A DNA stretch of 64,000 nucleotides from Octopus sinensis (GCF_006345805.1 NC_043001.1:15810001-15874000), one strand, 5' to 3'. Positions 1,035-43,091 are shown, counted from the stretch's first letter. Numbers and translations are program-made. The notes: generated by a model from the letters alone, not told the origin.

Positions 1035-1038
<4 letters not shown>

Positions 1039-1236
1039 TAATCCAAACGGGAAAACAGAAAAAACAACAACACGTGGAACAATTACAGTATTATTATTAT
1101 TAGGCGCTCAGGAAAATGGAAGAAGGAGAGTATGACGTTTCGAGCGGAGCTCTTCGTCGGAAACATAAGAGAAAGAAAGAAAGATCCCGAGATGGGAGGA
1201 CAGAGGAAAAAAAATTGCAGGTCGTCTTCACGAGGT

Positions 1237-1240
<4 letters not shown>
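1035..1240 (-). mobile_element. ~200-bp non-autonomous Penelope-like element (family P1) with hammerhead-like motif, flanked by (TA)n on both sides
   Basis: Minus strand reads ccgacga-a-gagc-tcc-gctc-gaaac-gtc (1134-1160). Homologous to 8036-8213 and 21572-21773. Confidence 0.6.
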
Positions 1241-1271
<31 letters not shown>

Positions 1272-1274
1272 CGC

Positions 1275-1656
1275 ACATAAGAAAAACACCGAAAACACCA
1301 TATCCGAGCGTGGCCGTCTGCCAGCCTCGTCTGGCACCTGTGTCGGTGGCACATAAAAAAAACACCATCCGAGCGTGGACGTCTGCCAGCCTCGTCTGGC
1401 ACCTGTGTCGGTGGCACATAAAAAAACCATCCGAGCGTGGCCGTCTGCCAGCCTCGTCTGGCACCTGTGTCGGTGGCACATAAAATCACCCACTACAATC
1501 ACAGGGTGGTTGGTGTTAGGAAGGGCATCCAGCTGTAGAAACACTGCCAGATCTGACTGGCCTGGTGTAGCCTTCGGGCTTGCCAGACCCCAGTTGAACC
1601 GTCCAACCCATGCTAGCATGGAAAGCGGACGTTAAACGATGATGATGATGATGATG
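1275..1656 (+). mobile_element. SINE-like element (family D) with (GAT)n tail and an internal ~57-bp unit repeated 3 times
   Basis: Conserved 3' part (gttaggaagggcatccagctgtagaaac...ccaacccatgctagcatggaaagcggacgttaaacgatgatg) recurs at 4415, 5885, 9770, 10920 and 13955. The unit ccatccgagcgtggccgtctgccagcctcgtctggcacctgtgtcggtggcacataaaa occurs x3 at about 1298-1485. Confidence 0.75.
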
Positions 1657-1855
1657 AACGCCATGTTGAATCGTTAGCTCCTGCACGCATTTTTCTCTCT
1701 CCTTGTTTCTTTTCTGTGTATCTTTCTGTTGAAGAGCGTAGGCTCGAAACGTAAAAGACTTGTTCTATTTCTATTCCTGAGCGCCATACTAATACAATTG
1801 TTTGTTTGTACTCCACCAGCCTTCGTTTTTGTTTATTTTCGTAAACCTTCCCGTT
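1657..1855 (+). mobile_element. Family P1 Penelope-like mini-element with hammerhead-like motif, ending in (TA)n
   Basis: 1721-1758 reads tcttt-CTGTTGA-a-gagc-gtag-gctc-GAAAC-GTA-aaaga, with paired stems I and II. Shares the cctgagcg...taatac tail with other P1 copies. Confidence 0.6.
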
Positions 1856-1872
1856 ATATATATATGTGCTGT

Positions 1873-2136
1873 TGTTGTATTTAGGAATGGTCATGTTGTC
1901 AGTTTAGCCAATAACAGCACATGCACTATATATTTGGAGTTAATTTGCTTCAGCTTGATTTATTTATTACATTAATCTTAATCTTATTTCGGCCAGAGTT
2001 CTTTCGTCACACTTCTGTGACCTCATCAGTGGTCTTTTGATTTCTTCTTTCTTATTTGCGTGTCTCTCCTTACTAACGGTCAGCCATTTTGTTTTTATTG
2101 GCTAAACTGGCAACACGACCATTCCTAAATACAACA
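1873..2136 (-). mobile_element. Penelope-like pLTR fragment with 42-bp inverted repeat enclosing a hammerhead ribozyme
   Basis: 1873-1914 and 2095-2136 are inverted copies with 2 mismatches. A canonical hammerhead core lies between them. Confidence 0.6.
1991..2034 (-). ncRNA. Type-I minimal hammerhead ribozyme motif
   Basis: Minus strand: gacca-CUGAUGA-G-GUCACA-gaag-UGUGAC-GAAA-G-aa-C-UC|uggcc. Intact core, perfect 6-bp stem II, 2-bp stem III, stem I 4/5 bp, CUC cleavage triplet. Confidence 0.7.
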
Positions 2137-2673
2137 TCTGTTTCAACACACGATTTCACATCAAGAATCTTGCAAAACAAATATATAAACGTATATACAC
2201 ACACACAAATATTTTATATAAGCACTGTTACTTTTTCTTCCAGGCTTCTACTGCCGAACCGCTAAGTTACAGAGACCATAAACACGCCAACACCGGTTGG
2301 CAAGCGGTAGTGGAGGACAAACACACACACACATACACATATATTGTGTGTGTGTGTGTGTGTGTGTGTGTATTTTCAAGCTTTTCTTTTATTTGTTTCA
2401 GTCATTAGACTGCGGCCATGCTAGAGCACTGCTATTTCTGCCGAGCAAATCCACTCCAGTACTTCATTTTTGTAAAACCTGGTACTTATTCTATCGATAT
2501 CGTTTGCCGAACCGATATAACCCTGCGCTAAAGTAGAAAACGTACAAAGTACCACGCATTGAGACTGAACCCGAAACCATGTGGCTGGAAAGCAAATTTC
2601 TTACCACACAGCCACATTTACGTGCATGAATGTATGCTTGTGTGTATGAATGTTTGTATGCATATTCTGTATC

Positions 2674-2811
2674 CGCTAGCGTAGCTAGAGTGTGTGTCGC
2701 CCAGGACGGCCCTTCCGTTTGTTACCCCGGACCCTAAAAAAAAATCACATACTACCTAAGCAGACCCAAAAGTGCCGCCCCTACTGCCCCACCACCCTAG
2801 CTACGCCAGTG
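2674..2811. mobile_element. hAT-like MITE (138 bp) with 8-bp TSD
   Basis: Terminal inverted repeats (TIRs) cgctagcgtagctag / ctagctacgccagtg match at 13/15. TSD tctgtatc at 2666-2673 and 2812-2819. Confidence 0.75.
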
Positions 2812-2886
2812 TCTGTATCTATAGAAATATTAAACCTTATAATTTAAATATATATGCATGTGTGTGTATATGTCTGCGTATTTGTA

Positions 2887-3144
2887 AAGGGTAAAAGTAA
2901 AGGCCCTACTCTCGGTCACGAATGACCATAGGGTCGCACCTAGAAAGTTACCCACCGAGGCACAAGTCCGAGTAAGGTTGTTCATGGAAGACCAGCAGTC
3001 ACCCATGCGTATCAGTCTCCCCCTCTGCACGGGACCGATGTTATCCAAGAGAAAGGCAAAGGGACCGATACAGCTTGGCATCAGTGACTCCTTGCAACAT
3101 ATTTCTACGGCTGAGTGAACTGGAGCAACGTGAAATAAAGTGTC
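2887..3144 (-). mobile_element. SINE family E (core + tail), truncated at the MITE
   Basis: Homologous to 21278-21550. The core gctgagtgaactggagcaacgtgaaataaagtg is also seen at about 50048. Confidence 0.7.
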
Positions 3145-3552
3145 GGATCTTTTCGGTCTGAACGGCAGTTTTTTCTAGCGGTGTCATATGAAATTTTCAC
3201 CCATAATTATGATCCCAGTATCGATCTATTGCATTTCAATCTGTTTTAGGGTTAGGGGTGGGTGAAAGGGTATCTTTTTTTTCTTCAGAAATGTAAATAA
3301 ACCCAATCTGTTTCTTAAACGAGGGACATATTCATACGGCACAGAATGTTTTCACCTCAATAGACGTCATTGATTGGTTGAAATTGCAGAAATTGAAGAA
3401 AAAACAACAAATATCTTACAAACTATAGAATTTTCTCAATAAAGCCAAGAGAAAAAGATGTTTTATAAACACATTCTACCAGTATACGAAGTTTAAAAGT
3501 TTTTAGTCACGTGGAAATTATTTTAAAAAACTGCCGTTCAAACCGAAAAGAT
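3145..3552. mobile_element. MITE family M (TIR ggatcttttcggtttgaacggcagtttt), ~410 bp
   Basis: Both TIRs present. Interior matches 11944-12357 in the opposite orientation. No clear TSD in this copy. Confidence 0.85.
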
Positions 3553-3838
3553 GTCTGTGTTGTAATTGCATTGCCTTTTATTTCTCTAATTTCACTTAAA
3601 TCTGATATGCTTTATAGAAATATTAAACCGACTGTTGTTTCTAGCAGGCGGGGAGAGACGCTTGCATTTGTCTGTTAGTGTGTGTGTTAAAGCGACACAT
3701 TTCTCTGATAACTACAAACGGCTGAAATATTTGAAAATAGAACGTGCGTATATGTGTGTGTGTGGCGTGTATAATAAACATATAATAATCTCATTCAACA
3801 CTAGCATCATTTTATGTATATGTCAATATATATATATA

Positions 3839-3880
<42 letters not shown>

Positions 3881-4285
3881 TAGAGAGATAGATACCTAGA
3901 TACGCACATGTATGTGTGTATGGTTCAACAAATATCTTTGTGTATGTATGGATACATATATATAGATGTACGTATGTAATAGCAAAATCTGAATGGGTAT
4001 ATATATATTTATTATATACAGGGAGAATATAAAACCCTCTTCAACGGGTTTTTATAGAAAACATGCACATACCCACACATTCTCTCTCTCGCTCGTACAC
4101 AGACACAAATGTGTGTGTGTGTGTGTGTGTCTGTGTGTAGATGTGAAAACAATGAATGAGAATCGCCGGCCAGGCAGAAAGAGTTCGTTGGAACTGGAAA
4201 TATATACAGGAGCCAAGCAACGAGCCAGAAAGATAAAGGTAATATGTACGTGCGTATATATTTCATTTCACACACAGAGAGAAAA

Positions 4286-4326
<41 letters not shown>

Positions 4327-4414
4327 TATTTACCTAAACACACTCCTATATTGTTATTGCCTTCAGCCAGAGGCAATGGGCATGCTGGGACACCATTATA
4401 TATATATATATATC

Positions 4415-4710
4415 ATCATCATTTAACGTCCGCTTTCCACACTAGCATGGGTTGGACGAATGACTGAGGGCTGGCGAACCAGATGGCTGCACCAGGCTTC
4501 AATCTTGATTATAGTAGAGTTTCTACAGCTGGATGCCTTTCCTATCGCCAACCACTCCAAGAGTGTAGCGGGTGCTTTTACGTGCCACCGGTACGGGGCC
4601 AGTCAGGCGGTACTGGCAACGACCTCGCTAGAATCTTTTACACATGCCACCGGCACGGAGGCCAGATAGCCACTCTGGCAACGATCACGCTCGGATGGTG
4701 CTGGTAACGC
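4415..4710 (-). mobile_element. SINE-like family D copy
   Basis: catcatcatttaacgtccgctttcc...ctacagctggatgcc; homologous to 1490-1656. Confidence 0.75.
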
Positions 4711-4722
4711 TATATATATATA

Positions 4723-4763
<41 letters not shown>

Positions 4764-4765
<2 letters not shown>

Positions 4766-5150
4766 GGCACAGGCGTGGCTGTGTGGTAAGAAGCTTGCTT
4801 CCCAACCACACGGTTTCGGGTTAAGTCGACTGCATGGTACCTTGAGGCAGGTGTCTTCTACTTGTGAGTGGACTTCGTAGACGGAAACTGAAAGAAGCCT
4901 GTCATGCACATATATATATATATATATCACAAAGACTCACATACGTTTGTTTTTATGCAAGTGTGTCTTTGTCTGTCCCCTACCCCATCGCTTGCCAACC
5001 AATATCGATGTGCTTACGTCCCCATAACTTAGCAGTTCGGCAAAAGAGGCCGACGGAATAAGTACTAAGTCGATTTCTTCACCTAAAACCCTTTAAGGTG
5101 GTACTCCAGTATGGCCACAGTCAAATGATTCAAACAAGTAAAAGAACATA
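4764..5150 (+). mobile_element. tRNA-derived SINE family A (degenerate)
   Basis: Head gtggctgtgtggtaag...gggtt and tail ...cagtcaaatgattcaaacaagtaaaag. Confidence 0.75.
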
Positions 5151-5179
5151 TATATGTATACATATATATACATACACAT

Positions 5180-5372
5180 ACATAAATCCCAAAAAGAACA
5201 TACACAAAACAAAAATGACAACGCAATGTGAAGTATTAGCAGATGCTCAGGGAAGGAAAGAAAGATGGTTTAATGTTTCGAGCAAACGCTCTTCTTCGGA
5301 AACAGAGGGAAGTCAAATAGAAAGAAAAACAGAGGAAGAAAATCGCCAACGATTCACATGTGGTTACATTTT
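5180..5372 (-). mobile_element. Family P1 Penelope-like mini-element
   Basis: Minus strand reads gttt-ccgaaga-a-gagc-gttt-gctc-gaaac-att-aaac. Confidence 0.55.
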
Positions 5373-5884
5373 GTACATGTATATAATGCACATATGAAAA
5401 TATCACATGAAATGCAACTGTATTTGAATATATAGTGAAACTTTCGTTATTGGAGGCCGTTCCCAAAAGCCAATTGTCACTCAAAATGTTCATAAACCCA
5501 AACTATTCCCCCCCCCCGTTTGAGATTCAAGGGAAATCATGGCAAATCAAGCTGAGGTGTGCATCAAATTAATGCTAGACAGCAACTGATGCTCTTCCCT
5601 GGTCTTTCCAAGAGAATTTTGTCTTTCATTGCAAAGGAATTTGAAAGCACTGACCCACTGGGTACATTTGTTCATAGGAAATGTATGCACACACACACAA
5701 CATGTAAATTTATATAACCTTTTAGTGCTCAGATTTATTCTGTTAACTGTATTCCTTACTTATTCACATAGTTTTGAATGAATCATGCATTATCTTCTAG
5801 CTTCAAGATTTTGATGATGAGGTGGTTTATGTTTAGAATGACATTGTAGGGTAGATGTGAAAGGCCAGATCCGACTTGCTTGAT

Positions 5885-6200
5885 CATCATCATCATCATT
5901 TAACGCCCACTTTCCATGCTAGCATGGGTTGGACGATTTGACTGAGGTCTAGCAAACCAGACTCCAATCTGATCTGGCTGAGTTTCTACAGCTGGATGCC
6001 CTTCCTAACACCAACCACTCCGAGAGTGTAGTGGGTGCTTTTACGTGCCACCGGCATGAGGGCCAGTTTGGTTGTATTGGCAATGGCCATGCCCAAATGG
6101 TGCTTTTTATGTGCCACCTGCACAGGAGCCAGTTCAGCAGTACTGGCGACGACCTCGCTCGAATGTTTCACGTGCCACCAGCACAAGTGCTAGTAAGGCG
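5885..6200 (-). mobile_element. SINE-like family D copy
   Basis: (cat)n tail plus the conserved family-D 3' region. Confidence 0.75.
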
Positions 6201-6662
6201 ATGCGGTAAACATAAAAACAGGTAAAATATTTTGGCTGGTTATGGCTGGTTTAAATGCTAAGGGGTGAAACCGCGATAATCCAGAATTCACTAATTTGGC
6301 AGCGATGATCATTGGAGACAAGTGACATGAACCTGGCAAACATGATTTGCATAACACCTGCCTGATTAGTTACCTTGGCCCATAGTATATAGGTCAGTCA
6401 TAGCTGATTTTCAGTGGTAAGATGCTGTTATACTGCTTTTAACCATTTTGATACCATCCAGTCTGAGACTGCCTGTTTGAAAGTAATCTAAATTAAACCC
6501 ATTCATTAAAATGTCACGTTAATTTATTTACCAAGCAAAGGTGGTATATTCCAACAGCTATATGATAATAATAATAGAGTTAAAGTGATAAAAATTAAAA
6601 CCACCTATCAATAATTTATGCTTCAAACACCAGATTAAAAGTGATAATAATATTTTACCCTT

Positions 6663-6872
6663 GGAGGTGCAATGGCCTAGTGGTTAGGGCAGCGGACTCA
6701 CGGTCGGAGTATCGTAGTTTCGATTCCTAGACTGGGCGTTGTGTGTGTTTATTGAGCGAAAATACCTAAAGTTCCACAAGGCTCCAGCAGAGGGTGGTGG
6801 GCACCCCTGTTATACTCTTTCGCCCCAACTTTCTCTCACTCTTTCTTCCTGTTTCTTGAGTAACACTGTGAT
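6663..6872 (+). mobile_element. tRNA-derived SINE family B (5' part)
   Basis: ggaggtgcaatggcctagtggttagggcagcggactc...gtttcgattcc (A-box and B-box), followed by the family B core. Confidence 0.75.
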
Positions 6873-7415
6873 GGGCTGCCCAAGGTGCCATGCAGTGGGA
6901 CTGAACCTGGAACCATGTGCTTGGTAAGCAAGCTACTTACCACACAGCCACTCCTGTACCTATAGTTAATAAATAAATTATAAGTATTTAAAAATAGGGG
7001 GTTATTTTTCAATCACCCTGTATACATCTGTGTGTTTATGAAACAAATTTATGATGCATGGTACAGAGAACAAGTTATGACTGCAGGAGATGGCAGTGTG
7101 GGTGGGGACAGGGTTGGTGGAGATAAGAAATGGAGGGAGGGGGAGAGGAGGGGGAGAAAGAGAAAAGAAAAGCGAGAGAGAAAGAAGTTTGAATGATAAA
7201 GATAGGAAGGAGATATCAAGGAGCTTAGGACCCACTGGAGGGGATGTGTGCATGCGTGAGTGTGTGTGTGTGTACATTAATGTACACACAGATACAAGCA
7301 TACATATATATATATACACACACACATACATGTAAATACACAAAAATATATATATATACACACTCACATATACACATATTCGTATGTGTGTGTATATAAT
7401 GTATATATATATATA

Positions 7416-7799
7416 CTCTTTTACTTGTTTCAGTCATTTGACTGCGGCCATGCTGGAGCACCGCCTTTAGTCGAGAAAATCGACCCCAGAACTTATTCTT
7501 TGTAAGCCCAGTACTTATTCTATCGGTCTCTTATGCCGAACCGCTAAGTTACGGGGACGTACACACACCAGCATCAGTTGCCAAGCAATATTGGGGGGAC
7601 AAACACAGGCACACACACACATATATATATATATACGACGGGCTTCTTTCAGTTTCCGTCTACCAAATCCACTCACAAGGCATTGGTCGGCCCGGGGCTA
7701 TAGTAGAAGACACTTGCCCAAGGTGCCACGCAGTGGGACTGAACCCGCAACCATGTGGTTAGTTAGCAAACTACTTACCACATAGCCACTCCTGCGCCT
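7416..7799 (-). mobile_element. Full-length tRNA-derived SINE family A
   Basis: Complete match to 44295-44704 and 61969-62390. Pol III A-box tggctatgtggt and B-box ggttcagtcc; internal (TA)/(TG) tract; gtaaaagag tail. Confidence 0.9.
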
Positions 7800-8035
7800 A
7801 TATATACATATATATATGTATTACACGCACACATATATAGACATATCCAAACAGTCATACACATACACAATTTATTTGCCACAAGTGTGATGAATGAGGC
7901 AACATTACAAGGATGTATCACAAAGATGGCTGATGGTAGGTGGCGGCAGTAGGGAAGATGGTCTGTATAGTTTTAGAACTGGGGATGAGGGTGGCATGTA
8001 CCATCTTCTAACTCAACCTCATATATACATATATA

Positions 8036-8213
8036 TGTGACTGCATGTGTACCGTTGGCGATTTTGTTTTTCCCTCTGTCTTCCATTCTCTGGATCTTTC
8101 CGACGAAGAGCTCCGCTCGAAACATTAAACCCTCCTTCTTTCCTGAGCATCCAATAATACTATATTTGTTCCATGTCCTCACATTGTTGTGTTTTCATGT
8201 TTGGATTAACTTT
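8036..8213 (+). mobile_element. Family P1 Penelope-like mini-element
   Basis: ttt-ccgacga-a-gagc-tcc-gctc-gaaac-att-aaa (8097-8130). Ends in tttggattaac + TA. Confidence 0.6.
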
Positions 8214-8323
8214 ATATAATTATAAATGAGAAAACCGCGCGGTGGCAGAGGATTTTGAAAATTTAGAGCATATAGGCTTGAGGCTTCCTTGCTGTAACCT
8301 CGTGGACATATTCTCGTCCTAGG

Positions 8324-8420
8324 CTTCTCTGATGATAAGACATGCCAGTTGTAAGCAAATTTAATATAATTTAATTAATTTGTTTACCAAAGTTTGTCGA
8401 AACTATGCATAGTCCAGAGA
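8324..8420 (+). ncRNA. Hammerhead-like motif with long stem II and palindromic stem III
   Basis: cttct-CTGATGA-taa-gaca...gtaagcaaatt/aatttgtttac...tgtc-GAAA-ctatgcatag-TC-cagaga. Confidence 0.4.
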
Positions 8421-8545
8421 TGAAAAGGGTAATTGTTTTTATTTCTCTTCCAATTTCAGAATTACAACTATTTAGTGGTTTGAGTTTGGCTGCTCTTTCT
8501 AGTGAGTCAAATGGCCTATCAGGGCCATTCCTTATATTGTTGATA

Positions 8546-8581
<36 letters not shown>

Positions 8582-8853
8582 CAAAATGGGACGAGACCGC
8601 TAAACATTCAAAAAGGCGATACAAAAAACACAGACGGGTCATTCGAAGCCTCTAATCTTCAGTCAAGAACCGGATCATCCTCGCTAGTCCCTTAATATTT
8701 GATATTCAACATTTCATCTATTCAATAAGACAATCAATACTTCATTTCATTTTACTATATATATATTATAAAGAATATAAATAAAGCATAAAAAACAGAG
8801 TTGGAATTTCTTTGAATAATATATATCCCTCTATACACAATCATACAAACCCC

Positions 8854-8927
<74 letters not shown>

Positions 8928-9369
8928 AGGGAGAGAGGGAGGGCTGGAGTAGAACAATTTCCTCCTAGTTGGGAATCTACTTCAAGAAGCTATCTTGTCC
9001 TCTTCCTCCTCCTTAACCCTTCCCATCATCTCCTGTGTTTTGATGTTTTATTCTTTAATGTGAGATAAGGGGATGCAAGAGGAAGAGGACTCAGGCACAG
9101 GAGGAGACAGCCGGCAGACGGAGAGGGGTGGGGGGCGGTTTCTTCCCTTAATTCTTTCCATCGTTCTGCGTACCCCAGCAAAAAAAGGGGAATCAAAACA
9201 CACACACACAATTAAACATACATACACATAATTATATACACACACACACAATTATACATACATATAATTATATACACACACACACACACATACGAGGAAG
9301 AGTCAGAAAGTAATGCAATTAAAAACCACATTACTTCTTGAACCACTTTTGTGTGCGTGTGTGTGTGTG

Positions 9370-9408
<39 letters not shown>

Positions 9409-9709
9409 GTGGGTGTATGTGTGTGTGTGTATGTATATAATATATATATATGTGTGTGTATGTGTGTGTTCTTTTACTGGTTTCAGTCGTTTGACTGTGG
9501 CCATGCTGGAGCACCAACTCGAAGGGTTTTAGTCGAACAAAGTGACCCCAGGACTTATTTTTAAGCCTAATACTTATTCTATTGGACGCAAAGACACACA
9601 CATTGATATATACATATACATATATATATATTTTCAACAATAAAGGGTAAAATTAATTAATTAATTAATTAATAATCAATAATTTTACCAAGTAGTTTCT
9701 TTCCTCTAA

Positions 9710-9741
9710 AAATCGGCATGAACTTTCTGGACAACCCAATA
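9710..9741. mobile_element. Solo mariner TIR
   Basis: aaatcggcatgaactttctggacaacccaata matches the TIR of the 57605-58164 element. Confidence 0.75.
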
Positions 9742-10510
9742 CATAAAAAGCACCCAGTATACTGTTTAGGGGGTGGTGTTAGGAAGGGCATCAAGCTGTA
9801 AAATATATTGCCAAAGCAGACAATAGAATCTGGTATGGCCCTCTGGCTTGTCTGTTCTTACTGACCCATCCAACCCATGCCAGCAGGGGAAAAGGGGACA
9901 TTAAATGATGATTTATATATATATATATAAAAGTGTATCCTTCACTTCTTTCAGTCATTAGACTACAGCCATGCTGGAGCATTGCGTTGAAGAATTTCTT
10001 GGTCAGATGAATGAATCCCAGTATATACTTTTCTTTTTAAACATTGGTACTTATTCTATTGAACTCTTTTTGCCAAACTGCTAGGTGACAGGGACATAAG
10101 CAAACTAACTATGGTTGTCAAGCAATGGTGGGACACAAACATGTACACACATATCATTAACATCATTTTGTGTCTGCTTTCCGTGCTGGCATGGGTTAGA
10201 CAATTTGACTGAAACTGATAAGCTGTTTTGGTGTCTACAGCTGGATGCCCTTCCTAATGTGCCAACCACTCCAAGAGTGTAATATATAAAAATATATGTA
10301 TGTATATACATGACAAGCTTCTTTCAGTTTCCGTCTACCAAATACACTCCCAAGGCTTTGATCACGCCAAGGTCATTGATGATACTTGTCCAAGATGCCA
10401 CACAGTGGAACTGAACCTAGAACCATGTGGATGGGAAGCAAACTTTTACCCACATGGCCATGCATATAAAACTTGTCTTAAAATAAGACCCTACCAGTAT
10501 AAAAATAATG

Positions 10511-10545
<35 letters not shown>

Positions 10546-11040
10546 ATGACTTGTACATAATGCCTGAAAATAGTAAAAACAATTACTGGCAGTCATGTCT
10601 AGAAGATCTGATCATAGCTTTACTTTTTAGGGAAGACCTAGGGCCAAACAGCAATAAAAACTACTTTAGTTTTCAATTGAAGGGTTGAGAAAGGATCTTT
10701 GGATGCTGGGCCTCAGTGAGGAAATGACAAGGGACCGGGAGATGTGACAATTTGCTGTACTTGATAAGACTCGTAAAGCTAAGTAAAACCACTGATTTGC
10801 ACACATAAAGGTTTGTCCCTCCAGTAGCCAGTGCCACGTAAAAAGCACCTGTGCTGGTGCTACGTAAATGCACCCGTGCTGGTGGCACATAAAAAGCAGC
10901 CAGTACACACTGTTAAGTGGTTGGTGTTAGGAAAGGCATCCAGCCATAGAAACCATGCCAAAACAGGCAATCAGAGTTTGGACAGCTCCCTGCTAGAAGG
11001 CTCCACATCAAGCTGTCTAATCCATGCCAGCATGGAAAGC

Positions 11041-11768: not shown

Positions 11769-12406
11769 CCCTTTTGTTACCAAATTCCAGTTGAAATACC
11801 ATGCTTTCCTTTCAATTAATTTCGAAAATAATAAAGAATTTAGTAAAATAACTTATTAAAAAAGCTGATATTTGGGACAAAAATGAACACGAAATTTTGG
11901 TGGAAAGGTTTTAATTCACATCTCACCTAAAATTGTTAAATTGGGATCTTTTCGGTTTGAACGGCAGTTTTTTAAGATAATTTCCACGTAACTAAACACT
12001 TTTAAACTTCGTATACAGGTAGAATGTGTTTATAAAACATCTTTTTCTCTTGGCTTTATTGAGAAAATTCTATAGTTTGTAAGATAATTTGTTGTTTTTT
12101 TTTCTTCAATTTCTGCAATTTCAACCAATCAATGACATCTATTGAGGTGAAAACATTCTGTGCCGTATGAATATGTCCCTCGTTTAAGAAACAGATTGGG
12201 TTTATTTAACATTTCTGAAGAAAAAAAGATACCCTTCCCCCCACCCCTAACCCTAAAACAGATTGAAATGCAATAGATTGATACTAAGGTCATAATTATG
12301 AGAGACAATTTCATGTGACACTGCTAAAAAAAACTGCCGGTCAAACCGAAAAGATCCTTAAATTGTTATAAAACTAGATATTTTGAGCAGGTTGGTACCA
12401 ACAGGG
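11769..12406. mobile_element. piggyBac-like non-autonomous element (TTAA-CCC...GGG-TTAA) hosting a nested MITE
   Basis: Ends ttaa|cccttttgttaccaa and ttggtaccaacaggg|ttaa. A degenerate partial copy precedes it at about 11608-11764. Confidence 0.55.
11944..12357. mobile_element. MITE family M with 8-bp TSD
   Basis: TIRs ggatcttttcggtttgaacggcagttttt / aaaaactgccggtcaaaccgaaaagatcc. TSD ttaaattg at 11936-11943 and 12358-12365. Confidence 0.9.
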
Positions 12407-13127
12407 TTAAAAGTCTCTATAAAGACGGTATCGTTTATGCTCCTTGGTTAGTCTTGACTGAACAAGACTTATGATTGAGGTCATTCTGGTTATGACTATT
12501 CGGGACTACTGAAAAATCCTTCTTTCAACATGGTTGCATGCATATGGATATGAGGTTGATTTAGATACCATTCTTAGCAGGCTGATTGTCCGCCGTTCAA
12601 GAATTTGAACCTGGAGATCTCCATTTCCAGCGACTTCGAGGGTCACCTCCCAGTGGTGTTGGGCGTCAACGAAGAGCCCTCAACTACAAGACGACCAAAG
12701 TTTTTTTTTTTAAGGTCTGGGGGTCTTTCGCCCCTAAGCCCTAGACAATCACCTAATCTCCCTTACCCATCTTGTTGCTTAACAACTGATTGTCCAATGT
12801 TTTAACATCAAGGACTTTTGTTGTTGCCATGGTGTTGGTTTAGTTGTCAGTTAATCCTAATCAAGCAAACTTATAATTAGAGACATTCTAGCTATGGCCA
12901 CCCTTCACGATCACATCATCCAATGTAGCGTTCATTTTGAAGAAGGTGAGGTGTGATTTGGAGATTTGTCTACTATTTCTAGCAAGCTCAGCAACCCCTT
13001 TAATGCAGCCCAACTGGCTCACTGATGTGCTTCATGAGGGTAGGGTGTGAACCTATGTCTTCTGAACAAAAGACGAAGACAGATGAAGGAACAACAAGCA
13101 GGTGTATTAGCTTAACGCTCAGGAAGA

Positions 13128-13427
13128 ATTTTGTTCCTTCTTGAGCCACACCTGGCTCATAGGGCATTTCCCAGTTTCCTTGGCGTATAGGTTCCCCACC
13201 TGGATGGGACGCCGGTCCATCGCAGGTGAGCTGCAAGATGCAGGAGGAAAGAGTGAGAGAAAGTTGTGACAAAAGATTCAGCAGAATTTCACCATTACCT
13301 TCTGCCAGAGCCACGTGGAGCTTAGGTGTTTTGCTCATAAACACACACATCGCCCGGTCTGAGATTCGAACCCGCGATCCCTTGACCACATGTCCGCTGC
13401 TCTAACCACCAGGCCATGTGCCTCCAC
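13128..13427 (-). mobile_element. SINE family B inserted into a decayed P1 element
   Basis: tRNA head at about 13355-13427. Flanking direct repeat ctcaggaaga on both sides. Confidence 0.8.
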
Positions 13428-14521
13428 ACTCAGGAAGACTGGTAAAGTCTTGGATATTTTGAGACTAGGTTTTTTTGATAGAAAGGGACGAGCGGGGAGA
13501 TAATGGAGATAGAAAAAATGTGTAGGGATTAACAGTTCAACATGATGTGTGTGCTTTCATGCCTGTCCACCCACCCCAACACTTGATAACAGGTGTTGGT
13601 TTGTTTACATCCCTGGAACTTTTTGATTCAGTAAAAGAGATTTGTTTGACTGAAACCTTCAAGTTAGTACCCCAGCATGGCCACAGTCCAATTACTGAAA
13701 CACGTTAAGCCTAAAATATTGTTGTAAGTCATCATTTGATGTCCATCATCTGATGAGCTGTGAAAAGTGGGTTGGGCAGAGTTAAATTAAATGACCCATG
13801 GTATATCGCTGGTATTGACTTCAGTTAATCCCAATGGCATCAAAGACAAAGTGAAACAATGAAATTAGAGAGAATTAGCAATGGTGGCCACAACTGAAAG
13901 CTAACGAAAATGATTATGTTAATTCTTGTTCTTTTGGCATTTATTAAGTGATATCATCATCATTTGATGTCCATTTTCCATGCTGACATGGGCCGGATGG
14001 TTTGATAGGAGTCGACCAGCTGGAGAGCTGCACCATGCTTCAATTTTCCGTTTTGGCATGGTTTCTATGGCTGGATGCCCTTTCAAATGCCAACCGTTTT
14101 ACAGAGTGCATTGGGTGCATTACACGTGGCACCAACACCATCATAGGATATATATATAATCTTTACTCTTTTACTTGTTTCAGCCATTTGACTGTGGCCA
14201 TGCTGGAGCACTGCCTTTAGTCAAGCAATGTTGGGGGGAACAAACACTGACACACAAACATATACATATATACGATGGGCTTCTTTCAGTTTCCGTCTAC
14301 CAAATCCACTCACAAGGTTTTGGTGTTCCCGAGGCTATAGTAGAAGGTGCAACACAGTTGGACTGAACCCAGAACCATGTAGTTGGGAAGTAAGCTTCTT
14401 ACCACACAGCCACAGTAAAAATTGAGTCATCACTAATGGTAACTGAGGGTGCTGAGGGAAATAAGTGATGATCAAATTTTACCTATATGGTTTCATATAT
14501 TGCACCTAGCCTTTATCAATT

Positions 14522-14556
<35 letters not shown>

Positions 14557-14747
14557 ATGCGTGTGGTTTGTTGTATTGGGAAAGACAACCAGTTGAAAAC
14601 CATTGTCAGCCCGAGGCTATAGTAGAAGACACTTGCCCAAGGTTCCACGCAGTGGGACTGAACCTGGAACCATGTGGCTTGTAAGCAAGCTACTTACCAT
14701 ACAGCCACTCCTCTGCCTATGTGTGTGTATATATATATATAATATCT

Positions 14748-14965
14748 TTAGTCCAAATTTACAGAAAACAAAAAGTGAAGAAAGGTGCAGGAACAACAAA
14801 CAGGTGTATTAGTTTTTAACACTTGGGAAGAATGGAAAAGTGTTTTACATTTCGAGCCTATGCTCTTCACCAGAAAGGATTAAGAAGAAAAAAAGGAGAG
14901 AGAATAAAAAAAAAAACGGAGAAAAAATGTGTTGGGAATAACGGTTCAATACGATGAACATGTGT
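14748..14965 (-). mobile_element. Family P1 Penelope-like mini-element
   Basis: Minus strand reads ttt-ctggtga-a-gagc-atag-gctc-gaaat-gta-aaa. Confidence 0.55.
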
Positions 14966-16520
14966 GTGTGTGTTTACACACTTAGTCTGTCATTGGGTAA
15001 TGATTGTAAGTGAGAATCACCTCCATACAAGCAGTTCTGTTCATTTCCAGTCTTTCGTGGAAAGCATGTTTGGACATGGGAAAATATTACCTTGCCTGGA
15101 AGCGAGTGTGGGTTGGCGACAAGAAAGGCATCTGGCCATAGGAAAAATTCTGTCTGACCCATGCAAGCACGGAAAAATGGACGTTAAATGGATGGTGATG
15201 AATAACTGTGCTACGTCACATACAAAACACAACAGACGGGAGATGAAACTGTATTAACGGTAAATACCGCAACAATGGCATGGATACCCTGGGGTATCAC
15301 TTCCCCAAAACATAAGGCCTTGCTTTACTATGCAACGGCCCAAGAATTGCTCACTTCTTTCACTTGGCTGTACGCCATTATACGTACACACACCGAAAGA
15401 TCGCAAGAAAATGTAATCTTCGATATGCTATTTATAATTAAATAGAAAATGGAATGGTCACGGCTGGAACGCCTTTGATTACCTAGTTGTTGTTCCGTAT
15501 CTGAACAACATTATTACCACAATCCGCTCGCGCCTCCACACCATAATCCCAACATTATCATGAAATACTATCAGACGCTCACATTAAATAAACAACATTA
15601 TAAGAAACAAACCAGCGAGGGCATTTTGACGTAGTCGCTCAATATGCTAGAAATAGCAGCCAGAGTGTTAAAAAACACGGGTGATTGTGTTTCTAGAGAG
15701 AATGTATTTACTTATTTCTATTCCTTGTTTTAGTCATTGGACTGCGGCCATGCTGGGGCACCGCCTTGACTGTCCTTTTATTATTATTATTAGTCTGATA
15801 CTTATTTTGGTATTCTATCGGAATTTTTTGCCGAACCGCTAAGTTCCGGGGACGTAAACAAATCAACACCGGTTGTCAAGCTACAGGGCCACACATACAT
15901 ACACACACACACACCAGGGCCTTCCATAGGTGGCAATCCTTGGAAACAACCGAGGTCTTGTTATTGTTTTGTCGAGTTAAACCGAAGGATTGCCCCACAG
16001 GTTTCTGTCAAAAAAAAAAAAAAATCAGTAAATCTATTCGCAAGACATTGGTCGACCCGGGGTTTTTTGTAGAAAAAAGCCGAGCAGTAGGACCGAACCT
16101 GGAACCTCGTGGTTACAAAGCGAACTTATCAACCACGCACTCATATCAGCGTCTACGGAAAGAAACTGATGCGTCGACCGAGAGTCGAACCCGAATCGGC
16201 AGCTTGGAAAATGACAATGCTGTCTGGAAAAAAAACGCACAGATAAAAAGGCAGTTGAATGTCTATGATCGTTGGTCTACTCGATCAAGACCAGCCTAGG
16301 GCTAAACAGCAATAACACGATCAACAGATAAGAGAAGTGTTGTGGAGGCAATATTCCTCTAATGCTATGGAGATAATGACATGACCAGCCTGTTACTGTA
16401 CAACACGTTAAGTAGGCGATAATACATCAACCTCATTCCATACACACATATACATAAATATATATATATATATAAATATACATACATACACACACATTAA
16501 TATATACATATATGGACAAA

Positions 16521-16580
<60 letters not shown>

Positions 16581-16681
16581 CAAATGACGTGCGCCTATAC
16601 ATACTTGTTACTTTAAATATATATTCATATATATTATATATATATATATACACGTACAACCATGCAAAAGGCATGTGCGTG

Positions 16682-16716
<35 letters not shown>

Positions 16717-17354
16717 CACGTACAACCATGCAAAAGGCATGTACGTATATATATATATATACATACATACATACATGCATATTTGTTATAAGTTATTTTA
16801 AACAGAGATATATAAATTCAGTGTGTGTGTATATATATATATACATTTTCTATATATTCATACATTTATATACGTACAATAACGCAAAATACATGTGCGT
16901 ATATACATGCATAACTATTTTACACACACACGCATACATGTGTGTGTATGTGCGAGTATTTAATTTGTGTATACATGCATGCATATATATTAGCTATTTT
17001 ACATGCACACACACACACATATGTACAACACCCACGCAATACATAGACATTTATAAATATATCCATGTGGATATACAATGTGTATACATACATATATTCA
17101 TCTATACATACACGTACAACACCCACGCAATGTAAACATATACACACGTATGTAAATATGTATATACATATTTAAATATGTATAGTTATTTAAATACATG
17201 TCTTCCTTGAGTTATACAAACACAGGCTATATACACAGATTATACGCACACACTAAACATTAGAAATACATGTACATGCATAGAATACTTGGGTAATGTG
17301 GACATATATTTTAAAGTCATATTACGAGTATATATACATATATACACACATACA

Positions 17355-17504
17355 CAGTGAAAGCCGCTTATTATTATAATAGATAATGATAGTTGTTATT
17401 TTGATCAAAATTTGTGTCCCGAAACTGTTTTCATAATGATCAACCGGTTATTGTTATCTTACAAGGTTTCGTTCCCCAGTGGTGATAATAAGCGGACTCC
17501 GTTG
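17355..17504. mobile_element. Tc1/pogo-like MITE (degenerate)
   Basis: Imperfect TIRs cagtgaaagccgcttattat / ataataagcggactccgttg. Confidence 0.5.
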
Positions 17505-18972
17505 TGTGTACGTGTGTATATAGGTACTACATATATATATTAAAACATAAACATAGGCGTATATATTTTGTTATAGGGGTAATTAAAAACACACCTCACC
17601 TTTTTTACGTATGATTTTTTCCCGCTATATATGTATGATGTATATTAAAAAATATATGTATATAGACACACGCAAAGATCGATATGAAAGTCTATATAGT
17701 TTTTTAAAGTTTCTTGCTGGTGTAACTTTTGGTTTTGATAATAATATATACACTTTCTTTTGTGGTTTAATTAATAATTATTATTTTCGACAAAGTCTCT
17801 CGTATTTTCCTTGGTGTTTGCAGTTTAAAATAAACCACTTGTGACAAAAAAACAGCGGAGACGTGAAACTAAACAATATATATATTTGTATTTTTCTGTC
17901 TACATCTATAGAGATTTCTGACTTGTTTTAATCAAGGCAAAACAATTGCTAAAATATATTTTCCCGTTTCTTCCACGTTTGCTTGTCTGTCTGTCTTCTT
18001 GGTAAAGCGTATAACAAATAAATTGTCTTCAGAATTCTCGTTAAGCGTTGTACAGTAAGTACCTAAACCTTTGAAAAAAAAATAGTTTTAAGGAGCTGTT
18101 TTTGCAGTGAGAGGGATAATATATATATATGTTATGTATGATAATGGGGCAGATGAAGAAATGGGAGCGAGAAACTTAAGGGCAGAAAGGGAGAACGGAG
18201 GGGGACACACACAAAAAGAGCTGTTTAGGCTAAGATGAGAGTCAACAAGTCCTGTCAACTAGTTTGAAAGTTAAATAGCTTAGCTGTGTTAGACTGCAGA
18301 GGTAAAATTTGAACTAGATAATGCTACCTTCAATTGTGTAGAAAAATGATTAAAACAGCCTATCTTTTTCTGTAGAGTATATATATATCACATACATATA
18401 TATATATATATAGCTATCTTTTATATTGTGTGTATATTTATAAAGTAAAGTATCCTACACGCGTGTGTGTATACATGTATATATATGACGTAAAGTATAT
18501 ATATTTTATTTGAAATATGAATGGTACACGTTTGTGTGTGTGTGTAAATATATATATATATTAGTCCCCGAGTACCCTCAGGCGAAACTCTGAGTAGCAA
18601 GAGACTAACTCACCTAAATTTAAATATTATTTCTAGGGTGGCACCGAATACTTTTTTTTTTTCCAACAGTCAACACGAAACGGATATATATGCTCATAAA
18701 CCTGCGTAAGTGTTGTATACGAGGTCAGTTCAGAGATATTTTTATATATATATTTATATTAACAAGGAAAATAATAAGGTTAAGCTAGATTTAATAAACT
18801 ATTAAAATATTAATGTCAAATAGCATAAAAAAAATTATTATAATTATTCAGCTTGGTTATAAAACAATTTTTGTAAGGCAAGTGTGTTTGCCAAATAATT
18901 ATAAATGTGATATTTTGTTTGAAAAAAAAAACACCTTATTAATAGAGGTGTATATATATATAATTAATGCGG

Positions 18973-19004
<32 letters not shown>

Positions 19005-19954
19005 CTCTATGGGTGAATGAATGAGGAGAGGGTGAGTTTGTGAGGAAACTTGAGGAACTAGAAAAGAAAAAGATATTTGAGGAGAGAATATTATGGAGAG
19101 AGAAGCGGAGTTGGAGGGGATTTTGCTACCGTCTTGCAGAGCAAGTTGCAGACTTGAGCCGAAGAGAGTTTGGTAAATTCACACATAGATGTTAAACAGA
19201 TAGACACACACATTTATATACGTATATATATTTTATAATATAATATATATATATATTATATATATATATATATATATGTTTGTGTTTGTGTCACTATATA
19301 AGGGAGAGAGAATGCATTTACGTAGACGAAAGAAAATTATTTGTGTGTGAGTGAGAGAGGGAGAAAGGAAGGAAGGAAAATGTTTGGTGTATGTAGATGG
19401 ATATAAATGTATGTAAATGTATGTATGTATGTGCGCGTAATATTTCTCTTGTTGTTGTTATTAAAGTTCTCCTTGCTCAATCTTACTGTTTTCTTCTCTT
19501 CCTTTTTCCTCAGTTCCTTTTTTAGATGATCCAAAAAATACAAAGTTTAAAGAAATTAACCAGTTTCCGCCGCCGCCTTCTTAAAAACACGCAACTTTTT
19601 TCAAGCCTTATCCAAAAAGTAATTTATGAATCCGAACTTCAAGCGTAACCGAAACACGAATACAAGCTTCGCTCTAATTGGTCATCTTTGTTTACAAACA
19701 CCAGTCGGGCGGAGCCAGCACCTAACAGCTATTGTTAAAGGCCCGCTGATTAGTCGATTGTTATTTTTAATTAAGTAATAGGTGGGTCTTGCCAGCAACG
19801 GTCTCCGTATGAATATACATACATATATAGAATAAATGTATTTACTGTGTACACGCGTGTATACATGCGTACATACATACATACATACATGCAGGTATAC
19901 AGAGCAAATCTATATAATCATATATAATTTCTATTGCATAATATAATTATATAT

Positions 19955-20408
19955 CGGGCCGACCAATGCCTTGTGAGTTGATATGGTAGAGGGAAACTGA
20001 AAGAAGTCTGTCGTATGTGTGTGTGTGTTTGTGTGTCTGTGTTTGTTCCCCTAGCATTGCTTGACAACCGATGCTGATGTGTTTACGTCCCCGTCATTTA
20101 GCAGTTCCGCAAAAGAGACCGATAGAATAAGTACTGGGCTCACAAAGAATAGGTCCCGGGGTCGATTTGCTCGACTAAAGGCAGTGCTCCAGCATGGCCG
20201 CAGTCAAATGACTGAAACAGGTAAAAGAGTATATGTGTATGTATATATGTATGTGTGCAGGAGTGGCTGTGTGGTAAGAAACTTGCTTCCCAACCACATG
20301 GTTCGGGTTTCAGTCCCACCGCGTGGCACCTTGGGTAAGTAGTCTTCTACTACAGCCTTGGGCCGACCAAAATCTTATGAGTGGACGGAAACTGAAAGAA
20401 GCCCGTCG

Positions 20409-20448
<40 letters not shown>

Positions 20449-20606
20449 ATAGGCGCAGGAATGGCTGTATGGTAAGTAGCTTGCCCACCAACCACGGGTT
20501 CAGTCCCACTGCGTGGCACCTTGGGCAAGTGTCTTCTACTATAGCCTCGGGCCGGCCAAAGCCTTGTGAGTGGATTTGGTAGATGGAAACTGAAAGAAGC
20601 CCGTCC

Positions 20607-20645
<39 letters not shown>

Positions 20646-20730
20646 TTGTCTCCACAACATCGCTTGACAACCGATACTGGTGTGTTTATGTCCCCGTAAC
20701 TTAGCGGTTCGGCAAAAGAGACCGATAGAT
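19955..20730 (+). mobile_element. Cluster of three SINE family A copies (partial/tandem)
   Basis: Family-A segments at about 19955-20230, 20258-20410 and 20451-20730. Confidence 0.85.
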
Positions 20731-21237
20731 TAAGCTCTGTATGTGTGTGTGTGTGTGTGTGCATGCGTGCATGTTCGTGCTTGCGTGTGTGCGTGCAAAT
20801 GTGCTTCTGTATGTGTGTGTGTGTGTGCATGCACGTGTGTGTGCATGCATGTGTGTGTGTGTTTAGTGCGCGTGCACTTGCGTTTATTCTCTCCAGCGCT
20901 CGATAACCGATATTGGTTTGTTTACGTCTTCAGAAACTGAGCAGTTCAACTAATCGAGACCGACACAATAATAAGATCACGCTTAAAACAAGTAATAGGT
21001 TTGTTTCCTTCGATTTAGTCATCTCAGGGCGGTGCCCCAGCATGTCCGCAGACAAATACCTGAAACAAGTAAAATGTTGCAATAATATATTTCCGCATGC
21101 GCATGCACACACGCATACAAAGATATATATTTATTTTTTTTAATCTACAGAAGCTACAAAGTGACTTAAGAGCTGAGAGTTTCGTTCAAGACTCTTATCA
21201 CGAAACTATCGGCTCTTGAGTCACTATATATATATAT

Positions 21238-21277
<40 letters not shown>

Positions 21278-21281
<4 letters not shown>

Positions 21282-21550
21282 GGTAAAGACCCCCTTCGGT
21301 CATGAATGACCATGGGATTGCACCTAGAAAGTTACCCTCCCAGGCACAAGTCCGGGCAAGGTAGTTTATGGAAGACCAGCAGTCGCCCATGCATACCAGC
21401 CTCCCCTCTCCACACCACTGATGTTATCCAAGGGAAAGACAAAGGTCGATACAGCTTGGCACCAGTGATGTCGCAACTCATTTCTACAGTTGAGTGAACT
21501 GGAGCAACGTGAAATAAAGTGCCTTGCTCAATAACACAACACGCAGCCCG
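21278..21550 (-). mobile_element. SINE family E
   Basis: Homologous to 2887-3144. Confidence 0.75.
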
Positions 21551-21571
21551 ATATATATAAGGTCTTTCAAA

Positions 21572-21773
21572 ATGTGACCTCGTGTGTACCGTTGGCGATT
21601 TTTTTTCCTCTGTCTTCCCTTCTTTCCTTCTCCTATGTTTCCGACGAAGAGCTCCGCTCGAAACGTTAAACCCTCCTTCTTTCCTTCTTTCCTGAGCGTC
21701 CAATAATACTATATTTGTTCCACGTCCTCGCGTTGTTGTGTTTTCTCTTTGTGTTTTCATGTTTGGATTAACT
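21572..21773 (+). mobile_element. Family P1 Penelope-like mini-element
   Basis: gttt-CCGACGA-a-gagc-tcc-gctc-GAAAC-GTT-aaac (21637-21671). Ends in tttggattaac(TA)n. Confidence 0.6.
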
Positions 21774-21819
21774 ATATATATATATACACACACACTTTTT
21801 AAAATTACATCTGCAAGAA

Positions 21820-21925
21820 CATCGCAAAAACTGCTACTAAGAGTTTCCCGTTCCCGTTCGTCGGGCATTCTTGATCACAACCCTCCAATGAACGGGAACA
21901 TGAAACTGAATGGCAGTTTTTTTTT
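21820..21925. mobile_element. Penelope-like fragment related to 1-106, again as an inverted pair
   Basis: gagtttcccgttcccgttcgtcgg is shared with 18-41. A degenerate opposite copy gaacgggaacatgaaact lies at about 21890. Confidence 0.5.
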
Positions 21926-23119
21926 ATGATGTTCTTGCAGGCACTCAGTATTTTTTATAAGGCACTTTTTACCGGAAACTAAAATTCCGTCACACACGCA
22001 TACACACACATGCAGGGAGAAAGAAAAAGTAAAAGAGAGAAAGAGATCGGTAGCTAGATATATGTGTGTATCTGTGCTTGCATTATGTCTCCCACCACCG
22101 CTTGACAACTGGTGTTGGTTTTTTACGTCCGACAGAATATGCACCAAGCTTAAAATATAAGTGCTGCGATCCATTTGTTCGCTTAAACGCTTCAAGGCGG
22201 TACTACAGCATGGCTGCAGTCGAATAACAAGCAAGATAATAGACATACGAACTACATACATGTATGTATTAAGTGCGTGTGTTTGTGTGTGCGTGTAATA
22301 TGTAAATTGAAATGCCAATTCTTCAGGTATGTTTCTTCAGAAATGCAATAAAAATGCAATAAAAGTTTTCAAGTATGTCCTCATTTTGGAAAAAAATAAC
22401 TGACCTTTGATTATGTGAAAAATCCTTAAGAGATACTGATCATATAGAAATGCAACAAAGTTTCACGAGCTATGCATAGCTCAGGATATTTCATACCCCC
22501 AGCTATCGTCCTAAAAGAACGAAAAAACCCCAGAAAGAACGAATCAGATCTTCTATCTAAATATCAGATCAGATAACTTCACTAAATGTCGCCACTTCGA
22601 CAAGTATCTCATTGATTCATTGGAAAAAATCATAGTAAAATCAGATTGAATAAATCAATACTTGAGTATTTACCCCAAACAATTACCCTTTGTCTCGGTT
22701 TCAATGCATTAACAGACACTCCTGACTTCATAATATGTTTGACTCAAGAGTCTTTGATGTTTTCAAGTCAGAATCATTCTAAATGTATTTCCGGATTATA
22801 CGATATCTCAATATCAACATTATTCACCCGAAATGTAATCACTATTTCTCTCTTAAGTTTTAGCACATAAAATAGACGCTCGTGATCTCTCTATAATCTA
22901 TAATAATACTTCATATTTGGCAGGTAAGGTTTTCAAACCATTATCGTTTCATACGCTCTCCTACATACTAGTCTCTCATTTATCCTCCTCTCTTCTTCTA
23001 CATATACACACGTGCGCACTCTCACACATCGCGTATATGCATGTATATATTAAAATATGTGTATATGTGTGCGTGCTTGCGCGGGTATAATGAAAGCAAT
23101 GAGCACAAAATGAAAGACA

Positions 23120-23290
23120 CTGCCCATTCTTTTAACTCCATTCATTTTTCTTTCACTCTCCTCATACTTTTCTTTTACAGTTTTCCTCTGTTGAAGAACT
23201 AGCGTCCGAAACGTCAACATTTTCCCGAGCGTCAAACTAATACACTTGCTTGTTGTTCATACACCTGTCTTCGTCTTTTGTTTTACATAT
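23120..23290 (+). mobile_element. Family P1 Penelope-like mini-element (degenerate)
   Basis: ctgttga-a-gaac-tagc-gtcc-gaaac-gtc, then cccgagcgtcaaactaatacac. Confidence 0.5.
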
Positions 23291-42199: not shown

Positions 42200-42222
42200 A
42201 TATATATAATATACATATATAT

Positions 42223-42269
<47 letters not shown>

Positions 42270-42600: not shown

Positions 42601-42673
<73 letters not shown>

Positions 42674-43030: not shown

Positions 43031-43091
<61 letters not shown>

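Follow-up and report, generated by a model that had tools for sequence, protein, structure and literature searches.

The 64-kb stretch of the Octopus sinensis genome analysed here (NC_043001.1:15810001-15874000, hereafter the window) carries copies of a short repeat that holds a hammerhead ribozyme-like motif (Table 1). The window is locally rich in them: eight copies lie in its first 23.3 kb, and a profile search added none from the 40 kb that follow. The original prediction, made from the sequence of the window, had listed seven scorable copies and a decayed eighth, and all of them lie where it placed them, with the cores, loops and stems that it described; we name the copies by the start positions used there and give the limits adopted here in Table 1. 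Stem II GAGC/GCTC is kept in six of the seven scorable copies, and the stem I pairings at 1721-1758 and 21637-21671 read as claimed. The copies do not, however, form the single family P1 that had been proposed, since they belong to family A, a B type, a type nearest family C and, in one case, a mixture of a B-type tail and a D-type stem II. Abutment on (TA)n, which had been ascribed to most copies, is clear for about five of the eight, but not for those at 23120, 13063 and 5180. None of the eight is arranged in tandem. We conclude that the copies are almost certainly remnants of the 3' pseudo-long terminal repeat (pLTR) of 5'-truncated, autonomous Penelope-like retrotransposons (Penelope-like elements, PLEs).

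Table 1. Hammerhead-bearing repeat copies in the 64-kb window, with cores and their positions as read on the strand given.
Copy	Position	Strand	Assignment	Core	Stem II loop	Other features
1035	1035..1239	-	solo 3' pLTR remnant of family A, type of the youngest subfamily	CCGACGA (U4C), 1160-1154	TCC	motif ~1164-1130; stem I has a U-U mismatch; flanked at either end by (TA)n
1657	1660..1853	+	solo 3' pLTR remnant, family B	CTGTTGA (CUGUUGA, A6U), 1726-1732	GTAG	stem I 1721-1725/1754-1758; predicted cut 3' of A1753; short (TA)n downstream
5180	5180..5372	-	older pLTR remnant, nearest family C	CCGAAGA, 5299-5293	GTTT	stem III ACAT (CpG decay); adjoins mixed TA-rich repeat
8036	8036..8211	+	solo 3' pLTR remnant, family A	CCGACGA, 8100-8106	TCC	stem III ACAT; deletion immediately 5' of core
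13063	13063..13540	-	decayed B-type remnant	not scorable		split at ~13121-13430 by a SINE-like insertion, with a TTCCTGAG block on either side of it; no (TA)n abutting
14748	14748..14945	-	older B-type remnant	CTGGTGA (CUGGUGA), 14873-14867	ATAG	(TA)n at 3' end
21572	21560..21773	+	solo 3' pLTR remnant, family A	CCGACGA, 21641-21647	TCC	stem I 21637-21640/21668-21671; (TA)n downstream
23120	23140..23290	+	old remnant, B-type tail and D-type stem II	CTGTTGA (CUGUUGA), 23188-23194	TAGC	stem II/loop GAAC/TAGC/GTCC, one mismatch; no (TA)n

We agree with the original prediction that the motif is a type I minimal hammerhead in which stem III is only the ACGU palindrome. It has the further traits of the minimal hammerhead ribozyme (min-HHR), namely a G10.1-C11.1 pair in stem II, an extra base 3' of A9, a palindromic 15.2-16.2, H at position 17 and a stem I of 4-5 bp. 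An Rfam scan of the window returned no hammerhead family among the best 150 of 348 rows, which consist of microsatellite matches to miRNA families and one weak viral row.

The link to a Penelope reverse transcriptase (RT) and GIY-YIG nuclease, which had been put forward as that of a partner, is borne out in a more direct form: the same repeat flanks open frames of about 1000 amino acids that encode both activities. The search for full-length elements with this terminal repeat succeeded, for example, at locus L031 (loci are cited by our own labels), where two repeats lie 6,274 nt apart, are 95.6% alike over 272 columns with gaps as the only differences, and enclose RT and nuclease frames. A protein search with the L031 RT was followed up in the best 150 of 8,496 candidates, which fall in two groups, and 20 loci were fetched from those 150 and picked for long open frames and coverage of both groups. 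Nineteen of the 20 carry a downstream repeat with a variant core, which is CCGACGA for the 10 A-type RTs and CTGTTGA for all 9 B-type RTs; at the twentieth, L075, the core of the downstream match was not scorable. Direct pLTRs with a hammerhead motif occur in L031, L069, L070, L071, L072, L074, L077, L079, L081, L083 and L085, and elements measure ~4.3-6.3 kb from repeat to repeat, with a long, CA-rich 3' region. The window copies align well to these coding elements. The 1035 copy is 84-85% identical to the 3' pLTR of L074 and L076 over 188-209 nt and 87% identical to the L031 5' pLTR over 155 nt, the copy at 1660..1853 is 85-88% identical to the 3' pLTR of L077, L079, L083 and L084 over 193-206 nt, and the copy at 21560..21773 is 90% identical to that of L087 over 224 nt. 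The origin of the repeats is thus the tail of a coding element and not a separate non-coding element. The original prediction had read them as a non-autonomous retrozyme or mini-element in need of a partner, and had named, as a finding that would speak against it, that they are a simple Penelope terminal repeat; in substance this is what they are.

The longest open frames among the fetched loci span 1008, 1008 and 1009 amino acids. The L069 and L077 proteins hold GLRF, ADKG and YIDD motifs, as expected for a PLE-type RT in a single frame, followed by a C-x4-C-x2-C linker (CSRSRCNTC and CSRPRCRTC) and, at the C terminus, a GIY-YIG region of CCHH type (IYC..C..C...YxGQT with EH and RHF histidines). 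Pfam RVT_1 is matched with E values of 1.3e-7 (L077) and 0.002 (L069); the GIY-YIG match is weak and below the cut-off (0.008 and 0.02). Relatives numbered 1,143 among 8,000 scored candidates, are annotated with PF00078, PF26215, PF28514 and often PF01541, and include near relatives from shark, turtle, snails, corals and urchin, and a search of PDB sequences with the 1008-amino-acid frame gave no match at E 1. By these sequence marks, which Craig et al. 2021 (bioRxiv 10.1101/2021.04.23.441226) give for such elements, the octopus element is a PLE with a C-terminal endonuclease (EN+) of Neptune/Nematis type. The RTs of families A and B are 74-79% identical and place the two as sisters (quick tree, 42 rows). 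No RT-linked copy came to light in the canonical subfamily of A or in families C and D, at which no search was aimed. L069 and L077 also carry up to ~3 kb of CA/TA-rich low-complexity DNA between the nuclease stop and the 3' pLTR; this region is common to element copies, so some of the microsatellite-like DNA in the genome is element-borne.

Genome copies were found by exact patterns; a word-based DNA search with a 203-nt copy gave none, as common words are skipped. Such patterns give thousands of genomic matches, compared with 0 for reversed controls. A 28-nt exact pattern taken from the 21572 copy, which has U4C, has 6,115 matches. The core tallies given here for families A, B and C refer to the first 100 matches listed by position, nearly all on contig C1, which were counted by hand and are not a random sample. 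With positions 4-7 left free, family A has 10,344 matches, and its tally comprises 65 CCGACGA, 27 CTGACGA, 4 CCAACGA, 2 CTGATGA, 1 CCGATGA and 1 CTAAGGA (U4C in 70 of 100); the canonical core CTGACGA has 2,364 exact copies. Family B has 19,737 matches, with U4 in 100, G5 in 97, U6 in 98 and A6 in 0 of the 100 listed. C3 (99), G8 (98) and A9 (99) are equally uniform, and position 7 is spread over T (47), A (21), C (14) and G (13) among 95 CTGTN cores. A single descriptor applied genome-wide counts 19,457 A6U (CUGUnGA) and 5,951 canonical motifs, a ratio of 3.3 to 1. The smaller families are mostly canonical: 83 of 100 listed matches in family C (701 matches, CCGAAGA in 7 of the 100), and 39 of the 60 matches of family D (stem II GGAC/GTCC), which also has C4 in 10, U6 in 6 and G6 in 2, the one other exception noted at position 4 being a T4-T5 case. 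In families A and B, U4C and A6U take the place of the canonical min-HHR core, which the older subfamily of A and the majority of C and D matches do show.

U4C in family A and A6U in family B are fixed at the level of the master elements, a conclusion about which we have hardly any doubt, because both are carried in both repeats of coding copies. The canonical core looks ancestral: loci outside this group of families as well as families C and D are mostly canonical, and canonical A is basal, with U4C derived, in a tree rooted on three family C rows, with weak support. Outside the octopus families, 80 of 464 confirmed loci yielded 27 motifs (none in 20 shuffles), of which 20 are canonical, 2 are CCGACGA, 1 is UUGUCAA with U6 and a U3-A8 pair, and 4 have other single changes. 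Two other accounts of the canonical A copies were discarded. They are not products of CpG decay, given 27 CTGA and only 4 CCAA cores and the placement of 27 of 30 in a supported group of their own, and their reading as reversions, suggested by a midpoint-rooted tree, was dropped after outgroup rooting. It remains that the fixation of each variant could be due to drift in a single master.

The idea that every non-canonical core is post-insertion decay of CUGAnGA is scarcely tenable. It applies to scattered single changes and to CUGGUGA at 14873-14867, which is single-copy decay of CUGUUGA, since G at position 6 is found in 0 of 100 listed B matches. To this extent, and because family C is mostly canonical, the earlier view of the variant cores as more than decay was too broad; it stands for U4C and A6U, which are fixed in coding families. 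Decay does not account for the absence of A6 from the listed B matches, for 6,115 identical U4C copies or for variants in both repeats of coding elements, and the direction of CpG decay is from CCGA to CTGA or CCAA, never the reverse.

The pattern of variation suggests continued constraint on the motif, with a free position 7, a held C3-G8 pair, the H17 rule and a compensated stem II. Stem II GAGC/GCTC and GGAC/GTCC differ by two compensated pairs; 102 copies have U, C or A at position 17 and none has G; and each of stem I pairs 1-4 is paired in 22-30 of 30 copies per A or B set. Position 7 of family B tracks subfamilies (7 tree changes, compared with 15.7 when shuffled), and 25 of 60 columns in the flank downstream of the family B motif vary at >=10%.

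From eight copies in 200 kb of arbitrary genome stretches (profile search) we extrapolate ~100,000 copies in 2.72 Gb, with a wide error of ~50,000-200,000. A pattern search of viral contigs gave 69 matches, 0 of them confirmed. Insertion is biased towards microsatellites, in line with the TA targeting of the original prediction: a (TA)4 or longer lies within 175 nt downstream of 28, 25 and 27 copies in three sets of 30 (80 of 90 in total), mostly at 92-125 nt, compared with 19% of random positions. In 30 loci fetched with the 28-nt pattern, the 3' end is constant at ~100 nt past the motif and the 5' extent is variable. The 5' extents lie anywhere between 2 and 1500+ nt; those of 15 of the 90 sampled copies are above 130 nt and reach into the element's 3' region. 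Family B ends are scattered (2 to 81 nt), and A-type ends cluster 60-103 nt upstream of the core (18 of 30 U4C copies; 27 of 30 canonical A copies, at 61-90 nt). At the point that corresponds to the 3' end of the copies, full elements have TTATA (A) or TTATATAT (B) in their 5' repeat before the sequence passes into the body. The copies thus end at a TA stretch that the element itself encodes.

These ends probably reflect target-primed reverse transcription (TPRT) that starts inside the RNA at the TA-rich stretch ~100 nt past the motif and stops early; in this model the element's nuclease would nick (TA)n and a short TA match would aid priming. Were the 3' repeat cut quickly, the template would be parted from its priming site. 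With priming downstream of the predicted cut, weaker cores would be tolerated or favoured and the rest of the fold would stay constrained. Since insertions begin ~100 nt downstream of that cut, the templates would be either uncut at the 3' repeat or rejoined, which favours slowed cleavage over a dead fold or full compensation. The fixed U4C or A6U is likely to make the motif a slow, dimer- or protein-dependent ribozyme, and we lean, without strong conviction, towards variant motifs that are slow but not dead. The reading as a whole, that the copies are pLTR tails made by TPRT and that a fixed core change likely slows the ribozyme in the two most abundant coding families, seems to us somewhat better than an even guess. 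Only tentatively do we go further and propose that two sister lineages of a very successful PLE each swapped the canonical U-turn (U4C, A6U) and kept the rest of the catalytic pattern over successive subfamilies, because cleavage that is throttled or gated by protein shields the priming site downstream of it.

Several observations weigh against slowed cleavage and its evolutionary setting. Minimum-energy predictions for monomers and dimers mostly show a misfolded core and not an active dimer. In the family B monomer, the pairs U4-G16.2, G5-C15.2 and U6-A15.1 are predicted with probability 0.7-0.98, and the core would thereby be hidden in a competing helix. Stem I of the youngest A subfamily contains a U-U mismatch (8 of 30). 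In a small sample of 17 long copies, none starts at the predicted cut site, so that cleavage has left no genomic trace there, and the mutational data behind the slowed-cleavage reading come from other hammerhead backbones. The cores were tallied on non-random matches, and the rooted tree is a quick one with SH-like approximate likelihood-ratio (SH-aLRT) support of 80-94 at its base, three divergent outgroup rows and 6 of 60 rows omitted as short or broken. The 5'-end cluster of canonical A copies is also what a short non-autonomous unit would give. One further candidate was rejected, that both variants lock the same inactive helix: A6U ranks 5th-6th of 27 single core changes in stabilising the B monomer, and U4C 17th-19th in A.

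Some of these points are shared by an account with the same origin of the copies in which the variant motifs are catalytically dead, their fold or sequence being kept for some other role, for instance to bind the element's protein, to position the internal RT start or to act within the pLTR promoter. We consider it unlikely, if worth taking seriously. A6 and U4 lie in the U-turn, and ribozymes with one change there have low activity according to PMC9901934; A6C is a slow variant (PMC3088659). Hammerhead mutants leave insertion in vitro unaffected, and in Anolis none of the reads stopped at the cut site (PMC11167929). The predicted pairing of the B monomer, the stem I mismatch and the lack of 5' ends at the cut site would all fit, and further short flank blocks are conserved too. 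What is kept, however, is the catalytic pattern itself, with C3-G8, a free position 7, H17 and a palindromic stem III, and one outside element, L197, has U6 together with the compensatory U3-A8 pair. The opposite account, in which a partner copy or an element protein brings A6U and U4C to cleavage equal to that of canonical PLE hammerheads, so that A6 is not invariant here, strikes us as improbable. The variants do recur in family D (C4 in 10 and U6 in 6 of 60, more often than G6 with 2) and among the 27 outside motifs (CCGACGA twice, UUGUCAA once), and the PLE hammerhead is protein-assisted (PMC11167929), but in the motifs examined neither variant is accompanied by a change at a second site, and pairwise mutagenesis, on a different backbone, found rescue only with the 3-8 swap according to PMC9901934. 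Still more doubtful is the spread of part of the short copies as a non-autonomous, retrozyme-like unit of ~200 nt that borrows PLE protein. Its chief remaining support is the A-type 5'-end cluster; in addition, the units occur in brief tandem arrays (of three in L085 and of two each in L075 and L035), and animal retrozymes are argued to stem from pLTRs (bioRxiv 10.64898/2026.07.22.740005). The window copies show no tandem arrangement, though, the sampled copies that extend from 130 to 1500+ nt into the element and the scatter of family B ends speak against a unit, and the cluster sits where the element reads ATGTG, which offers microhomology to (TA)n; moreover, the alignment references lie outside the canonical subfamily, so that alignments may end early.

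Additional motifs and repeats were seen alongside. The multi-unit pLTR runs, of the type proposed as a source of retrozymes, lie at L085:5960-6790 (~275-nt period), L075:690-1480 and L035 ~700-1070. The L197 motif (2795-2825, metagenome contig JAAUXV010067574.1), with U3-A8 and U6, is a single copy 3' of a related RT frame; a separate canonical motif lies upstream within a long hairpin (L197:126-170). On the minus strand of L007 (G000:C1, near 6.21 Mb), motifs starting at 2852 and 2489 have a TTGAAAA core (U3-A8), stem II GGGG/CCCC and a CGCG palindrome as stem III, within a ~360-nt duplicated unit whose second copy has a damaged GAAA; this is probably the pLTR of another PLE family. Within the window, elements resembling short interspersed nuclear elements (SINE-like), with tRNA-like heads, lie at 13121-13430, at 6662-6856 and from ~23460. 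A 266-nt inverted pair (3145-3410 and 12092-12357, 91% complementary, 8.7 kb apart) is likely two copies of a short DNA element, and a 307-nt unit, related to it as judged by eye, is in tandem at 24241-25138 and ends in CCCTAA-like repeats (25121-25160). Three copies of a 62-nt unit lie inside another repeat at 1292-1485, and a 405-nt tandem duplication (98% identity) at 42215-43068.

The role of hammerheads in PLEs is debated: one paper proposes that they cut tandem precursors, another reports that insertion in vitro does not require cutting, and Naiads flourish although they lack hammerheads. The octopus genome offers matched natural motifs on a near-identical scaffold, with the canonical form in its older families and a changed one in the two coding families that have most copies. 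Either its A6U hammerhead works, or a transposon has multiplied to tens of thousands of copies although its hammerhead is nearly dead. Counts based on a CUGAnGA descriptor can miss most of the PLE hammerhead-like motifs of a genome. If cleavage is indeed throttled, A6U would be a natural variant that functions despite a change at a base held to be invariant, and one that descriptor searches have overlooked; canonical and variant families in one genome would provide a ready test of the purpose of the PLE hammerhead.

Existing work frames these variants as follows. U4C is a natural variant with low in vitro activity that nonetheless supports viroid infectivity (PMC3088659), and single changes in the CUGA turn of a type III ribozyme give low activity with no rescue (PMC9901934). 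Perreault et al. 2011 (PMC3088659) describe natural core variants as rare, whereas the octopus A6U is fixed in ~20,000 exact-pattern copies. The Anolis PLE ribozyme needs protein and is dispensable for insertion in vitro, where TPRT starts inside the RNA and needs no homology to the target (PMC11167929). An octopus repeat annotation counts Penelope-like families, with ribozymes absent from its main text (PMC13282606). Our literature searches gave no report of A6U and none of U4C fixed in the masters of PLEs; both may be listed in Lünse et al. 2017, by its title on numerous PLE-linked hammerhead variants (via the review PMC6765202), or in supplement file 1 of PMC4209133.

Compared with known systems, the octopus elements resemble most closely the Neptune/Nematis EN+ PLEs described by Craig et al. 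2021, with which they share a single frame of GxRF, DKG, RT, C-x4-C-x2-C linker and CCHH GIY-YIG, direct hammerhead-holding pLTRs, many 5'-truncated copies and a microsatellite bias; they differ in the long CA-rich 3' region and the non-canonical cores of the dominant families. The metazoan min-HHR of Cervera and de la Peña 2014 (PMC4209133) is likewise type I, with a stem I of 4-5 bp, an extra base between 9 and 10.1, G10.1-C11.1, a palindromic C15.2-G16.2 and mostly solo copies, which were ascribed to truncated PLEs, and with dimers predicted to be necessary (no monomer activity and low dimer activity are given there). The cores in the part of its Fig. S3 examined here are all CUGAnGA or UUGAnAA, with no CCGA or CUGU and no cephalopod row, whereas U4C and A6U are majority forms in the octopus families. 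The copies are also short, hammerhead-bearing, pLTR-related and numerous, as are animal non-LTR retrozymes (PMC7229834; Li et al. 2026 preprint). Retrozymes, however, are described as tandem units of 150-450 bp that have canonical type I ribozymes and lack a coding parent in cis (PMC7229834); the octopus copies have minimal motifs, stand singly as the tails of coding elements, form only occasional runs of two or three units outside the window, and in families A and B the repeat flanks RT and EN frames. The pLTR hammerheads of PLEs, dimer folding, solo copies and microsatellite bias are already published; what is unusual, and well supported, is that non-canonical cores are fixed in the most abundant coding PLE families of this genome.

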